DNA of 64,000 nucleotides from Malacoraja senta (taxonomy: Eukaryota). The position numbers and the translations under genes are program-made. Below the pieces are notes generated by a model. It was given only the letters and a program-made list of their open reading frames with translations. It did no database searches and was not told where the DNA came from. Location: assembly GCA_038087875.1 (NCBI GenBank), contig CM075989.1, positions 1,054,001 to 1,118,000 on the forward strand. The letters run 5' to 3'. Every line of letters begins with the position of its first letter. The first letter of the stretch is position 1. Positions 4,272-46,500 of the stretch are shown in pieces.

Positions 4272-5826
4272 TAGATTCAGATTCAGATTCAGATTCAACT
4301 TTATTGTCATTGTGCAGTGTACAGTACAGAGACAACGAAATGCAGTTAGCATCTCCCTAGAAGAGCGACATAAATATGAGCAGTAAATAAATAAATCTAA
4401 TAAATCCTGGTGGGAGGAGTGTCCGGGGGGGGGGGGGGGTGTGATTGGCAGTCACCGAGGTACAGTGTTGAGTAGTGTAACCGCCGCAGGGAAGAAGCTG
4501 TTCCTGGACCTGCTGGTCCGGCAACGGAGAGACCTGTAGCGCCTCCCGGATGGTAGGAGGGTAAACAGTCTGTGGTTGGGGTGAGAGCAGTCCTTGGCGA
4601 TGCTGAGCGCCCTTCGCAGACAACGCTTGCTTTGGACAGACTCAATGGAGGGGAGTGAGGAACCGGTGATGCGTTGGGCAATTTTCACCACCCTCTGCAG
4701 TGCTTTCCGGTCGGAGACAGAGCAGTTGCCATACCATACTGTGATGCAGTTGGTAAGGATGCTCTCGATGGTGCAGCGGTAGAAGTTCACCAGAATCCGA
4801 GGAGACAGATGGACCTTCTTTAGTCTCCTCAGGAAGAAGAGACGCTGGTGAGCCTTCTTGACCAGAGTTGAGGTATTGTTGGTCCAAGAGAGGTCATCGG
4901 AGATGTTGACCCCCAGGAACCTGAAGCTGGAAACACGTTCCACCTCCCTCCCGTTAATGTGGATGGGGGTGTGCGTGCCGCCCCTAGACTTCCTGAAGTC
5001 TACAATGAGCTCCTTGGTCTTCTTGGAGTTAAGGGCCAGGTTGTTGTCAGCGCACCATGCTGCTAGGAGCTGGACCTCCTCCCTATAGGCCGACTCATCG
5101 TTGTTGCTGATGAGGCCAATCACCGTTGTATCATCTGCATACTTGATGATGGTGTTAGTACCATGTACAGGTGTGCAGTCGTAGGTGAAGAGGGAGTAGA
5201 GGAGGGGGCTCAGCACACAGCCCTGTGGAACGCCGGTGTTCAGGGTGAGGGTTGAAGAGGTGTGCTTGTCTAACCTAACAGACTGAGGTCTGTTGGTTAG
5301 AAAGTCCAGTATCCAGTTGCAGAGGGAGGGATCGATGCCCAGGTCACCGAGTTTGGTGATCAGTTTAGAGGGTATGATGGTGTTGAATGCTGAGCTGTAA
5401 TCGATGAACAGCATTCTTACGTAAGTGTCTCTGTTGTCGAGGTGGGAGAGGGCGGAGTGAAGTGCCGTTGAGATGGCATCCTCCGTACTCCTGTTCTTGC
5501 GGTAGGCAAACTGATAGGGATCCAACGTGGGGGGTAGGCAGCCTTTGAGGTGTGCCAGGACCAGCCTCTCGAAGCACTTGGCGATGATGGGGGTAAGTGC
5601 AACTGGGCGGAAGTCGTTGAGGCTTGCCGCAGTGGAGTGTTTTGGCACCGGCACAATGGAGGTGGATTTAAGGCACGTGGGCACAACTGCTTGGGCAAGT
5701 GACAGGTTGAAGATGTCAGTCCAGACGTCTGTCAGCTGCGCAGCACAGGCCCTGAGGACGCGCCCGGGGATGCCGTCGGGGCCAGCAGCCTTACGTGCAT
5801 TAGTCCTACTCAGTGCCACGTAGGGA
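4272..5826 (-). mobile_element. Rex1/Babar retrotransposon, young, 5'-truncated
   Basis: Uninterrupted RT frame followed by a 3'UTR with gacaataaag and a (TCTGAA)n tail at 4272-4298. Confidence 0.92.
4452..5825 (-). CDS. Rex1 reverse transcriptase, C-terminal ~457 aa, no native start
   Basis: [42 protein letters not shown] and KYADDT in one frame with no stops. Confidence 0.85.
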
Positions 5827-11493: not shown

Positions 11494-11670
11494 TAATTGG
11501 TAATTCAAGCAGCTGATGGAAATATACTTGGAAAAGATGAAAATATAGAGTAATAAGAAATATTTTCCAAAGGTTAAGACAGGCAAAACTGGTGACTTCT
11601 GCAGTGTGGTGTTTACATTCTTTGCAGAATTCAGATTCTGATAAAGCACTTGGGCTACAGGTTCATATGT

Positions 11671-11723
11671 GGGGTGGGAGATTGCAACCTTCACCTGGTT
11701 GACCTGTTTCGACGAATGCAATC
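11671..11723 (+). ncRNA. Minimal HDV-like self-cleaving ribozyme fold (P1 damaged in this copy)
   Basis: P1 GGGGTGG, P2 GATTGCA/TGCAATC, P3 ACC/GGT around loop TTCACCT, mini P4 T-TTCG-A and J4/2 CGAA, all in canonical order. Confidence 0.65.
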
Positions 11724-11809
11724 AACCTGGCATGATCAATCAAGTAAGATCAAATATAACAAGTTGTCCTACAACTTTAGTCTGTGCACGCCATACGCAA
11801 GAAGAAGAC
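11671..11809 (+). mobile_element. Short non-autonomous retroposon (Ingi/Vingi/RTE-like) with a ribozyme head
   Basis: TSD GGTTCATATGT(G) at 11660-11670 and 11810-11820. Internal hairpin AAGTTGT-cct-ACAACTT at 11761-11777. Tail ccatacgcAAGAAGAAG. Confidence 0.75.
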
Positions 11810-11979
11810 GGTTCATATGTGTCTTGTTTCATCTGTGTGTAGGGCATTTGTATGCTAATTGGAAGGCGTAAACATGTGCACTCTCTGTCCAATGGCTGAT
11901 AAGAAGTTAGATCAAGAACTTAAACAGTGTGCCCTTTGTTTTGCAGTTGTGAAACAGGCGCATTGATTGAAAGATCCGG

Positions 11980-23024: not shown

Positions 23025-25320
23025 TCGGGGAGCACTTCGGGTCCAGTGAACACAATACCATTAGTTTCAATATAATTATGGAGAGGGTCAGAACTGGACC
23101 TAGGGTTGAGATTTTTGATTGGAGAAAGGCTAACTTTGAGGAGATGCGAAAGGATTTAAAAGGAGTGAATTGGGACATGTTGTTTTATGGGAAGGATGTA
23201 GAAGAGAAATGGAGGACATTTAAAGGTGACATTTTAAGAGTACAGAATCTTTATGTCCCTGTTCGGTTGAAAGGAAATAGTAAAAATTGGAAAGAGCCAT
23301 GGTTTTCAAGGGAAATTGGACACGGTTCGGAAAAAGAGAGAGATCTACAATTATTATAGGCAGCATGGAGTAAATGAGGTGCTTGAGGAGTATAAAGAAT
23401 GTAAAAAGAATATTAAGAAAGAAATTAGAAAAGCTAAAAGAAGATACGAGGTTGCTTTGGCAAGTAAGATGAAAGTAAATCCAAAGGGTTTCTACAACTA
23501 TATTAATAGCAAAAGGATAACAAGGAATAAAATTGGTCCATTAGAGAGTCAGAGTGGACAGCTATCTGCAGAGCCAAAAGAGATGGGGGAGATATTGAAC
23601 AATTTCTTTTCTTCGGTATTCACCAAGGAGAAGGATATGGAATTATGTGAGGTAAGAGAAACAAGCAGAGTAGCAATGGAAACTATGAGATTCAAAGAAG
23701 AGGAGGTGCGGACACATTTGAAAAATATGAAAATGGATAAGTCTCCAGGTCCTGACAGGATATTCCCTAGGACATTGAGGGAAGTTAGTGTAGAAATAGC
23801 AGGGGCTATGACAGAAATATTTCAAATGTCATTAGAAACGGGAATAGTGCCGGAGGATTGGCGTACTGCGCATATTGTTCCATTGTTTAAAAAGGGTTCT
23901 AATAGTAAACCTAGCAATTACAGACCTGTTAGTTTGACGTCATTGGTGGGCAAATTAATGGAAAAGATACTTAGAGATAATATATATAAGCATCTGGATA
24001 AGCAGGGTCTGATTAGGTACAGTCAACATGGATTTGTGCCTGGAAAGTCGTGTTTGACTAATCTTCTTTAATTTTTCGAAGAGGTTACTGGGGAAATTGA
24101 TGAGGGTAAAGCAGTGGATGTTGTCTATATGGACTTCAGTAAGGCCTTTGACAAGGTTCCTCATGGAAGGTTGGTTAAGAAGATTCAATTGTTGGGTATT
24201 AATGGTGGAGTAGCAAGATGGATTCAACAGTGGCTGAATGGGAGATGCCAGAGAGTAATGGTGGATGGCTGTTTGTCAGGTTGGAGGCCGGTGAATAGTG
24301 GGGTGCCTCAGGGGTCTGTGTTGGGTCCAATGTTGTTTGTCATGTACATCAATGATCTGGATGATGGTGTGGAAAATTGGATTAGTAAGTATGCAGATGA
24401 TACTAAGATAGGTGGTGTTGTGGATAATGAAGTAGATTTTCAAAGTCTACAGAGAGATTTAGGCCATTTGGAAGAGTGGGCTGAAAGATGGCAGATGGAG
24501 TTTAATGCTGATAAATGTGAGGTGCTACATCTCGGCAGGATAAATCAAAATAGGACGTACATGGTAAATGGTAGCGAATTGAGGAATTCAGTTGAACAGA
24601 GGGATCTAGGAATAACTGTGCATAATTCCCTGAAGGTGGAATCTCATGTAGATAGGATGGTAAAGAAAGCTTTTGGTGTGCTGGCCTTTATAAATCAGAG
24701 CATTGAATATAGAAGTTGGGATGTAATGATAAAATTGTACAAGGCATTGGTGAGGCCAATTCTGGAGTATGGAGTACAATTTTGGTCGCCTAATTATAGG
24801 AAGGATGTCAACAAAATAGAGAGAGTACAGAGGAGATTTACTAGAATGTTGCCTTGGTTTCAGCAACTAAGTTACAGAGAATGGTTGAACAAGTTAGGTC
24901 TTCATTCTTTGGAGCACAGAAGGTTAAGAGGGGACTTGATAGAGGTCTTTAAAATGATGAGCGGGTTAGACAGAGTTGACGTGGATATGCTTTTCCCATT
25001 GAGAGTAGGGAAGATTCAAACAAGGGGACATGACTTGAGAATTAAGGGACAGAAGTTTAGGGGTAACATTAGGGGAACTTCTTTACTCAGAGAGTGGTAG
25101 CTGTATGGAATGAGCTTCCAGTGGAAGTGGTGGAGGCTGGTTCGATTTTATCCTTTAAAAATAGATTGGATGGGTATATGGACGGGAACGGAATGGAGGG
25201 TTATGGTCTGAGTGCAGGTAGATGGGACTAGGGGAAAGTAATAAAAAAATAAAATAAAAAATAAGTGTTCGGCACGGGATGGCCTGTTTCCGTGCTGTAA
25301 TGGTTATATGGTTATATGGT
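23025..25320 (+). mobile_element. Young CR1 LINE, 5'-truncated
   Basis: Near-continuous ORF2 and an (ATATGGTT)n tail. Highly similar to 33387-35678. Confidence 0.95.
23078..25100 (+). pseudogene. CR1 ORF2 reverse transcriptase, disrupted (frameshift ~23323, stop 24069-24071, frameshift ~25070)
   Basis: KSPGPDRI, NYRPVSLTS, DFSKAFDKVPH, SGVPQGSVLGP, KYADDTK. Confidence 0.9.
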
Positions 25321-43542: not shown

Positions 43543-46500
43543 TTTAAAAGAACAAATGGAGGTCTTTTTTCAAACAAATGATACTTCAGATATATCGCCT
43601 ACTTTACTTTGGGAATCTTTTAAAGCATACATTAGGGGTATTATAATTTCATATCAAGCTTTTCAAAATAAAAAGAATAAGAATGAACAAAGACAGTTAG
43701 AAGAACTTATTAGACAAATGGATATAGATAATGCTAAAGATCCATCAATAGATAAACATAATAAAATAATAATTTTAATATTTAAATTAAATAAATTATT
43801 ATCTGCCAAACTTATAAGACTTTTTCAAATTACAAAACAAGAGCACTTTGAATTTGGGGATAAACCGCATAAACTTTTGGCTCGCCAGCTAAAAAAACGA
43901 GAAAAGGAACATACTATACCAAAGATCAAATCAGATAAAGGGGAATTATTAACAACACCGAAGGATATTAATAAAAGATTTGCGCAATTTTACGAGAATT
44001 TGTATACATCTAAAACGATAATTGATTCCAATAATATCACAAAGTTCTTGGATACCTGTAATCTTCCAAAGTTAGAGCTGAAGGAACAAGAGGAACTGGG
44101 TGCACAAATCTCAATTAAGGAATTAGAAGATACAATAAACTCACTAAAAAATGGAAAAACACCAGGCCCTGATGGATTTACTAATGAATTTTATAAAAAC
44201 TTTTATGATAAAATAATACCAAGATTACAAAAAATGTACCAATACGCTTTTAAAAAACGAATACTACCTGATACATTAGCGGAATCAACGATTACATTAA
44301 TACCTAAGAAAAATAAGGATTTAGAAGAACCTGGCTCATATAGAGCTATAGCATTGTTAAACACAGATCAAAAAATATTAGCGAAAACATTAGCCAGAAG
44401 ATTAAGTAAATACATTAGTAAATTAATAAACCCAGATCAGACAGGGTTTATCCCTAAGAGATACTCTTCTAATAATATGAGACGTCTACTCAACATAATG
44501 CACTCACACAAATCTGAAGATCAAGAATTATCAATTATTTCGCTGGATGCTGAAAAAGCATTTGATCAAGTAGAATGGAATTATATGGATAAAGTATTAC
44601 AAAAATTTCAACTGGGAGAGAATTTTATTTTATGGATTAAGTTACTATATAACAAACCTACAGCTAGAATACTTACTAATAACATATTATCCTCGAAATT
44701 TCAACTATCAAGGGGAAATAGACAAGGATGCTCATTATCACCACAGCTGTTTGCTCTCATTATTGAACCGCTAGCAGAAAAAATTAGAATACACCCTGAT
44801 ATTCATGGATATAATACTAAAGACTCATATAATAAAATATCTTTATACGCGGATGATATATTATTGTATATTACAAAACCTCAAATCACTATACCAAATA
44901 TATTAAATTTAATTGAAGACTTCGGATCTTTTTCTGGATATAGAATAAATTGGAATAAAAGTGAAATTATGTCAATAAAACCGAAAGATTCAACACATCT
45001 TTTAAAATTCCCTTTTAAAATAGCTACAGAAAAATTTAAATATTTGGGAATCGAAATTACCAGAGCATATCAAGGTATGCTCAGGGCAAATTTTGACCCC
45101 CTACTTAATAAACTGAATACATTAATTAAATTCTGGAAAACGCTTCCGATGTCTTTAATAGGCCGAATAAACGCAATAAAAATGATCTTTTTACCACAAA
45201 TTTTATACCTATTTCAATCAATTCCTATATACTTACCTAAGAAGTTTTTTAAAAAACTCGACTCAGATATCACTAATTTTATATGGGACTATAAATCACA
45301 TAGAATACAAAAAACCCATCTGAATAAATCTAAAGTATTGGGGGGTCTAGCACTACCTAATTTTATGTATTATTATTGGTCAGTAAATATTAAAAACATG
45401 ATTCAACTGATGGATAACTCCGCCCAGCAAGTAGACTGGATTGTAATGGAGAAAGAGGATTGCTCCTCTAGAAACATTGGAGCGATCCTCCTCTCTCCAA
45501 TGAAATTGAATAACATAAACTATAATAAGAACCCAATTATTCATAGTACAATCCGTATTTGGAAACAAATAAAACAAAATTTAAAATTAAGAAACTTATC
45601 ACTTTTATTACCTATAGTCAATAACCCTTCGTTTAGTCCTTCTATTATAGATAAAGCTTATACACAATGGGATAGACTAGGAATTAAAACGCTTGGTGAC
45701 TTGTATGAAACTGGAAAATTACTTTCATTTCAACAATTACAAATAAAATATAAACTCGGAAATAATCAATATTTTAAATACTTTCAAATATGCGACTATT
45801 TGAAAAAATATATAAAAGATCATCATAATAACCCAGCAGATGTACTGGACGAGGCAATGCAGATAAAAGCGGAATCAGCAAACTTAATATCATATTTGTA
45901 CAATATTATCTTAAATGCACAAATACCATCTACGGAGGGTATCAGAAGAGACTGGGAACAAGAGTTAGCTATTAAAATTTCAAAGGAAAGTTGGAATGAA
46001 TACTTATTAAAAGTGCATAAATGCTCGATTAATGTAAGACACACTTTAATACAATTTAAAATTTTACATAGATTATATTATTCGAAAACTAAAATTTATA
46101 AAATTTTCCCAAACGTATCATCTATTTGTGATAAATGTCAATCCCAAGAAGCAACTATAGCGCACTCATTTGTCTTCTGTACAAAAATTCAAAAATTTTG
46201 GAATGAAATTTTTGAAATCTTTACAAAGTTATTTAAAACAAGACTGATACCCAAAGCAGAATGGATTATCTTCGGAATAACGGAAGATGATCCAGAATTA
46301 AATGTGTTTCAAAAGAAATTAATGGATTATGGGTTAATAACTGGAAAAAAGCTAATTCTAAAATTTTGGAAGAAGGCTCCAATACCAACTATAAATATGT
46401 GGATTTCAAATATGTTTGAAACATTACACCTTGAAGAGATAAGACTCCTCCTAGCAGGTAAACCAGATCACTTCCACCTGACGTGGTCTGCATTTATAGA

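Follow-up and report, generated by a model that had tools for sequence, protein, structure and literature searches.

Active ribozymes have been described in short, internally deleted elements of R2 (PMC3414825) and in NARTco/SIDER (PMC4035085). Why only a few LINE clades yield bipartite derivatives is a question left open by PMC5786205, and Vingi is absent from the ribozyme-bearing clades listed in the available text of that article. Vingi elements carry a single ORF that encodes an APE endonuclease and a reverse transcriptase (RT) and has no RNase H (PMC13708176). Vingi-1 has been used as a gene-insertion tool, with donors that contain both UTRs (PMC13708176). No Vingi ribozyme is stated in the accessible text of the literature found on Vingi and HDV; repeat databases, patents and supplements lie outside that search and may contain the family described here.

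In the window analysed here (the whole stretch of DNA, 64 kb in length), a short retroposon was inspected together with its genomic relatives. Very probably it is a degraded member of an abundant 138-nt family in which the ~81 opening bases of a single-ORF LINE, likely of the Vingi type, are joined to its ~44 closing bases, and in which the head is a predicted P4-less HDV-like ribozyme that likely cuts the RNA at G1. The parts of the copy are as follows.

11671-11809, + strand: element copy; a real insertion and a damaged copy
11660..11671, + strand: left target-site duplication, 11 bp plus a G in common with G1; empty site with a single copy in runs X2, X7 and X8
11671..11723, + strand: predicted P4-less HDV-like ribozyme, with the predicted cut 5' of G11671 (fold comparison)
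11671..11677, + strand: P1 5' strand (family alignment)
11680..11686, + strand: P2 5' strand, 7/7 pairs with 11717-11723 (sequence and family alignment)
11687..11699, + strand: P3 stem and L3 loop, P3 being 11687-89 with 11697-99
11700..11705, + strand: P1 3' strand, damaged by a 1-nt deletion and a mismatch (family alignment and folding energy)
11706..11716, + strand: G of P1.1 (11706), 5-nt linker instead of P4 (11708-12), putative catalytic C (11713) and J4/2
11671..11750, + strand: part from the LINE 5' end, family nt 1-81 (alignment to L194)
11728..11738, + strand: predicted terminal helix, 5' arm; 11 bp in the intact copy L015, three changes in the window copy
11751..11763, + strand: junction of ~13 nt, probably in part a local repeat of LINE 5' sequence; gives the left arm of the hairpin
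11761..11777, + strand: 7-bp hairpin, in the short element and absent from the LINE
11764..11807, + strand: part from the LINE 3' end, family nt 95-138, with the last codons, the stop codon (11778-80) and the 3' UTR
11783..11793, + strand: predicted terminal helix, 3' arm
11799..11808, + strand: (AAG)n tail, common to element and LINE
11810..11821, + strand: right target-site duplication; empty site in X2, X7 and X8

The copy lies within a 12-bp direct repeat (11660-71 = 11810-21), with mismatches immediately beyond both ends. The last G of the repeat doubles as G1 of the element, so the duplication is 11 or 12 bp long, the length that the initial annotation had given. Four of the 24 listed sequencing runs were compared at this site. 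The insertion is present in run X1, and one contig each in X2, X7 and X8 (three other organisms) runs directly from 11648 into 11810 and has the repeat just once. Because these three runs still contain the element family at high depth, the window insertion is younger than the family. No second copy of the element was found within the 64-kb window. Interspersed and simple repeats are abundant there, and fragments of the reverse transcriptases of other LINEs lie at 4647-5819, 23538-24788 and 44117-45190.

A search of the genome (1.94 Gb) with the element gave 1,716 candidates, and 39 of the 40 scored were non-self copies with 93-94% identity. A 26-nt motif that spans the junction within the element occurs 3,731 times genome-wide without mismatch, which is a lower bound on the number of family copies; its reversed control has none. 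The first 100 of these matches by position were taken as a family sample, a choice that avoids bias to the window copy. Family copies begin with G1, finish with (AAG)n and are enclosed by duplications of 11-13 bp. The alignment starts exactly at G1 in 78/100 copies and within nt 1-3 in 90/100, which bears out the expectation that 5' ends would coincide with G11671. Target-site duplications flank 80 of the 100, and 57 of these 80 measure 11-13 bp. The duplication ends directly before G1 in 43 cases, shares the G in 20 and is off by 1-3 nt in 17. As a bipartite non-autonomous LINE, the family has thus amplified independently and with target-site duplications; its length is 138 nt. For pairing counts the sample was reduced to 87 copies by leaving out 4 duplicated loci, together with 9 copies whose alignment begins after nt 3. 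The mean divergence of these 87 is 4.5%.

Both ends of the element are LINE-derived and its coding middle is gone. The link was made from the 3' end, where a pattern with non-element letters upstream had 248 matches. Among the 100 of these that were listed, one upstream sequence recurs; it is the terminal stretch of a LINE ORF, and the stop codon of that ORF falls within the 3' part of the element. A search with this sequence gave 379 candidates and then the full-length relatives P0004-P0006, which encode an endonuclease and an RT without RNase H (Pfam). In the LINE copy L194, element nt 2-77 (89% identity) and 100-138 (90%) flank an endonuclease-RT region that is collinear with aa 29-1019 of P0004, although the ORF is broken. 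A LINE sharing both termini, for which a search had been proposed, has therefore been found. Aligned with the LINE, nt 1-81 of the element are its start and nt 95-138 its end, with ~13 nt between them. The same ribozyme head occurs at several further partner LINE 5' ends, and all partner LINE copies seen are broken. Two other routes to the partner were tried. Searches with the Pfam models PF14529 and PF20049 gave no LINE with the element ends in 30 + 20 + 20 loci (50/150 and 20/150 matches examined). A pattern of ribozyme plus other sequence was set aside, since 30 examples examined among its 178 matches were deleted or interrupted copies with no recurring LINE continuation.

Since its head is taken from the 5' end of the LINE itself, the element is an internally deleted, non-autonomous LINE. 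The initial annotation had called it a SINE, a label that no longer holds. A classical Pol III SINE would join a small-RNA head to a LINE tail and resemble a ribozyme by chance. The size, copy number and tail of the family are SINE-like, and its majority sequence has no TTTT run. The head, however, is identical to the LINE 5' end at the 89% given above and has nothing tRNA-like about it. Its box A and box B matches do not exceed those of shuffled sequences (47-93% of shuffles do as well), there is no tRNA within the window, and a sister short family with another junction contains a T5 run. A Pol III origin is thus largely refuted and highly improbable. That sister family (L136, L153, L381 and L382) also arose from this LINE by internal deletion. 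It has the same head and tail with a different junction, so the LINE's internal deletion occurred at least twice.

The partner LINE is likely of the Vingi type. In a tree of reverse transcriptases, the partner, five sister families and P0004-6 form one clade (support 100/100) that is separate from the RTE-like and two-ORF elements of the same genome; the tree has no named Vingi reference row and came with long-branch warnings. A search of the PDB gave no protein named Vingi. An intact sister ORF (L236, 1,002 aa, family C) has an endonuclease and an RT and no RNase H (Pfam). The assignment rests on this architecture and on a C-terminal motif that we take to be that of Vingi. Several further observations were made on LINEs of this genome. 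Inverted 5' segments are seen in the partner copies L198, L199, L200, L202 and L218, and the first half of the ribozyme is tandemly repeated at the family C 5' ends of L233 and L236. The broken partner copies L226, L191 and L192 are 54-84% identical to a protein named from an eel (Synaphobranchus kaupii) and 80-91% identical to a metagenome protein (P0003, P0002), and horizontal transfer of the partner-type LINE is possible on this similarity. Young two-ORF LINE families with a CCHC ORF1, an ORF2 of up to 1,277 aa and copies 98-99% identical (L031-L060) bear no relation to the element.

Intact copies probably adopt a double-pseudoknot fold and cut themselves 5' of G1, using C44 (11713 in the window) as the catalytic base. 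The initial annotation had placed P1, P2, P3, the C at 11713, the hairpin and the (AAG)n tail correctly in the window sequence. It had also asked whether a consensus would restore the pairing of P1, and in the majority of the 87 copies P1 is paired at 7/7 positions, with a G1.U pair and either U5.G or U5-A depending on the subfamily. P2 (7/7), P3 (3/3) and P1.1 are all paired as well. The fold is wholly intact in 32/87 copies. At key positions, G1.U is found in 73/87, G25 in 76/87 and C44 in 81/87, and U20 is also as expected. All HDV-like elements lie within 54 nt of the family majority, with no P4 stem; the proposed size of ~53 nt is that of the window copy. P4 had been proposed to be reduced to a UUCG loop; there is no P4 stem at all, just 5 nt between GU and the putative catalytic C. 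A pattern for intact P1, P3, L3 and C has 3,142 exact matches genome-wide and none with the reversed control; the pattern omits P2 and counts all subfamilies as well as LINE heads.

A descriptor of the HDV fold, a check that had been suggested, matches the majority core; among the 100 copies it matches 29 in its strict form and 46 when relaxed. It has no match in the window copy, the window, 8 shuffled windows or 20,000 shuffled cores. Its matches in the LINE loci are confined to the 5' ends of four sister families (B, C, D and E), and it does not match family F. The descriptor was composed after the sequences had been seen, with one L3 position relaxed to admit family E, and the stems in the comparison of five LINE families (one representative each) were selected by pairing; these controls are therefore biased towards the ribozyme reading. 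In that comparison, 81/85 pair cells are paired, and swapping the 3' strands gives 44-57. Changes on both sides (compensatory) are seen at 12/17 pairs across the five LINE families; within the element family itself no covariation was found. Only 13-21 of 34 stem positions are identical between the families, so it is structure and not sequence that is conserved. The spacing from P1 to the catalytic C is 26-45 nt in the sister families and 7 nt in the element family, which therefore lacks P4.

The same comparison bears on the proposal that the head, of the same origin, serves mainly as an internal promoter from which Pol II starts at G1, with the ribozyme as a backup or as protection of the 5' end. 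In L1Tc, Pr77 combines promoter and ribozyme in the same 77 nt (PMC4035085), bipartite LINEs are thought to be transcribed by Pol II (PMC5786205), and exact starts at G1 would fit a promoter equally well. A promoter would not, however, account for a fold that is kept by compensatory changes across five families with so few stem positions alike, and we regard it as a less probable main function of the head than self-cleavage.

It has also to be considered whether the fold was inherited from the LINE in a form too reduced for cleavage, without P4 and with a one-pair P1.1, so that the element spread without catalysis. The 5 nt that replace P4 agree with this. Searches with Rfam at gathering and weak thresholds gave no ribozyme match in the window or in the intact copy L015; families B, D and E miss too, so a match to Rfam does not define the HDV-like fold. 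When the full-length element is folded in a nested model, P1 competes with P2 (pair probabilities of about 0.3 and 0.7, respectively), and the nested-fold energy of the core gives no signal (z +0.52 in the window copy and +0.92 in L015). P4-less HDV-like ribozymes have nevertheless been shown to cleave in vitro (PMC10879173). The rival UUCG hairpin that would bury C44 is unfavourable by folding energy, and another short family combines this 5-nt linker with different stems. In addition, the four core changes at the level of subfamilies (nt 8, 31, 32 and 45; few, and picked after the fact) all preserve pairs and core bases. Spread without catalysis is accordingly judged improbable, and cleavage by intact copies is kept as the preferred reading.

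In the LINE, the ribozyme may overlap the start of translation. Three LINE copies have an ATG that overlaps J4/2 and lies in the reading frame of the endonuclease, and at the 5' ends of L226, L194 and L227 a stop codon and the in-frame ATG overlap in J4/2-P2. Translation might for this reason begin inside the LINE ribozyme. The idea that the short elements lose the LINE stop codon in J4/2, as R2 SIDEs do, was rejected; the stop is kept in 36 of the 100 heads listed among the 3,142 matches, and 20/20 inspected heads that retain it are short elements.

The window copy itself is likely dead, for two reasons. Its core has 53 nt against 54 nt in the family, owing to a 1-nt deletion, and P1 is broken; the energy of P1 and P3 is +0.2 kcal/mol against -12.4 in an intact copy. 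G25, the base in most copies, has changed to C at 11695 in L3. In an assayed HDV-like ribozyme, G25A strongly reduced cleavage (PMC13635239). The initial annotation had suspected a dead copy from the damaged P1 3' strand and had missed the change at G25. Three further changes lie in the arm after the ribozyme. Without P1, G25 and part of the terminal helix, the window copy is likely inert.

The sequence behind the ribozyme also has a predicted structure. The fold of nt 55-139 beats 200/200 shuffles (z -3.19) and is predicted to consist of an 11-bp helix, formed by the post-ribozyme segment and the 3' UTR, around the 7-bp hairpin. In five families, one copy each, the 30 nt directly behind the ribozyme were then tested for pairing with the 30 nt that precede the tail. 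Helices of 7-9 bp between the 5' and 3' parts are predicted for A, C, D and E, with energy P values of 0.0005-0.04 relative to shuffled sequences; family B has no significant helix (P 0.48 on the same scale). Non-cognate LINE pairs reach a helix of at least 7 bp in 2/20 cases, and in the element family the helix depends partly on a palindrome. These results are suggestive of a 5'-3' helix as a feature of the sister LINE families, being predicted in 4/5. A requirement of a longer terminal helix for spread (10-11 bp, compared with 8 in the LINE) was not supported, as one subfamily keeps 8 bp. No report of a 5'-3' UTR helix was found in the literature searched, including the available text of PMC8233481. 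The duplications start with A or G in 49/52 copies, compared with 45% at control positions, which fits priming on the (AAG)n tail.

A possible course of transposition can be outlined. An intact copy would be transcribed and its RNA cut at G1 by its own ribozyme. On balance, the RNA may come mainly from host read-through, in line with the promoterless element proposed in the initial annotation, and an internal promoter could contribute too. The endonuclease-reverse transcriptase of the LINE would bind the 3' end of the element in trans, as the shared ends and tail suggest. Reverse transcription at the nick, primed on the tail and aided by a target match of 1-3 nt, would then give full-length copies from G1. 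The predicted helix would tie the post-ribozyme sequence to the 3' UTR, and this would be one reason for the retention of both ends.

The heads of the sister families are closely similar to the mammalian CPEB3 ribozyme (Rfam RF00622), and both descent and convergence on a small fold would fit. RF00622 matches 4/14 loci, all of them family C heads, with 45-64.2 bits (cut-off 35). Genome-wide there are 51 matches among 59 scored, 39 of them above the cut-off. The best 30 comprise 12 family C heads (10 with an ORF behind), 12 older heads of three other types in which no ORF was found, and 6 copies of a further short element with a P4-less head; the window element family is not among these best 30. 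The old heads at L357, L359, L361, L367 and L370, without an ORF, resemble CPEB3 in P1, P2 and P4 as well, and by this resemblance they would be better candidates for CPEB3 relatives than the family C heads. The further short element (L366, L368 and L372-L375, match at about 1501) is a second short retroposon of ~165 bp with duplications. Its P4-less head has the same 5-nt linker as the window element and other stems, scores 37-44 bits on RF00622 and seems one G short at its start for a 7-bp P1. With CPEB3 the element family shares the L3 sequence and a one-pair P1.1. The element differs from CPEB3 in P2 and P3, has no P4 and has no RF00622 match, and CPEB3 is a single conserved intronic copy, unlike the element family. 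The similarity of the sister-family heads nevertheless points toward an origin of CPEB3 in a mobile element. In the literature searched, including the available text of PMC8233481, a transposon origin of CPEB3 was not found reported.

A wider proposal may be advanced tentatively. Vingi-type LINEs may, as a clade, start with HDV/CPEB3-type ribozymes and close their RNA by a helix that pairs the segment directly behind the ribozyme with the 3' UTR. The 138-nt element, with its P4-less ribozyme, clasp and tail, would then be a minimal transposition unit, and mammalian CPEB3 would be a domesticated 5' end. The helix predicted in 4/5 families would be a testable answer to why few LINE clades yield bipartite derivatives. 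A natural template of 138 nt would also reveal which end parts are needed in Vingi-1 gene-insertion donors.

By analogy, the element likely works as NARTc, SIDER and the R2 SIDEs do, and ribozyme-headed, internally deleted retroposons are already known as a kind. NARTc, RIME and SIDER belong to the L1Tc/ingi clade of trypanosomatids (PMC4035085). Here the host is an animal genome, the element has 138 nt with a predicted P4-less core of 54 nt, and the partner has a single ORF without RNase H. Like the R2 SIDEs of Drosophila (PMC3414825), the element joins a LINE 5' ribozyme to a LINE 3' end; mobilisation in trans and release from a co-transcript, the latter proposed for R2 SIDEs, would apply here by inference. 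The R2 SIDEs insert specifically into 28S rDNA, are rare and have a greater length (529 bp in R2Dwi_SIDE; PMC3414825), whereas the present family is dispersed, has thousands of copies and has a partner of the APE type. The retention of LINE 5' and 3' parts alone is shared with the non-autonomous derivatives of Vingi-1_EE, with Bov-A and with RTESINE (PMC5786205). In its P4-less nested double pseudoknot and catalytic C, the predicted head resembles the minimal HDV-like and theta ribozymes, nearly 99% of which were found in gut phages, often beside tRNAs, in a search that included few eukaryotes (PMC10879173). Here such a ribozyme is predicted at the 5' end of an animal retroposon. Beyond this known kind, a predicted HDV-like fold without P4, of a type described nearly always from phages, stands at the head of an animal retroposon, with more than 3,000 heads of intact pattern in one genome.
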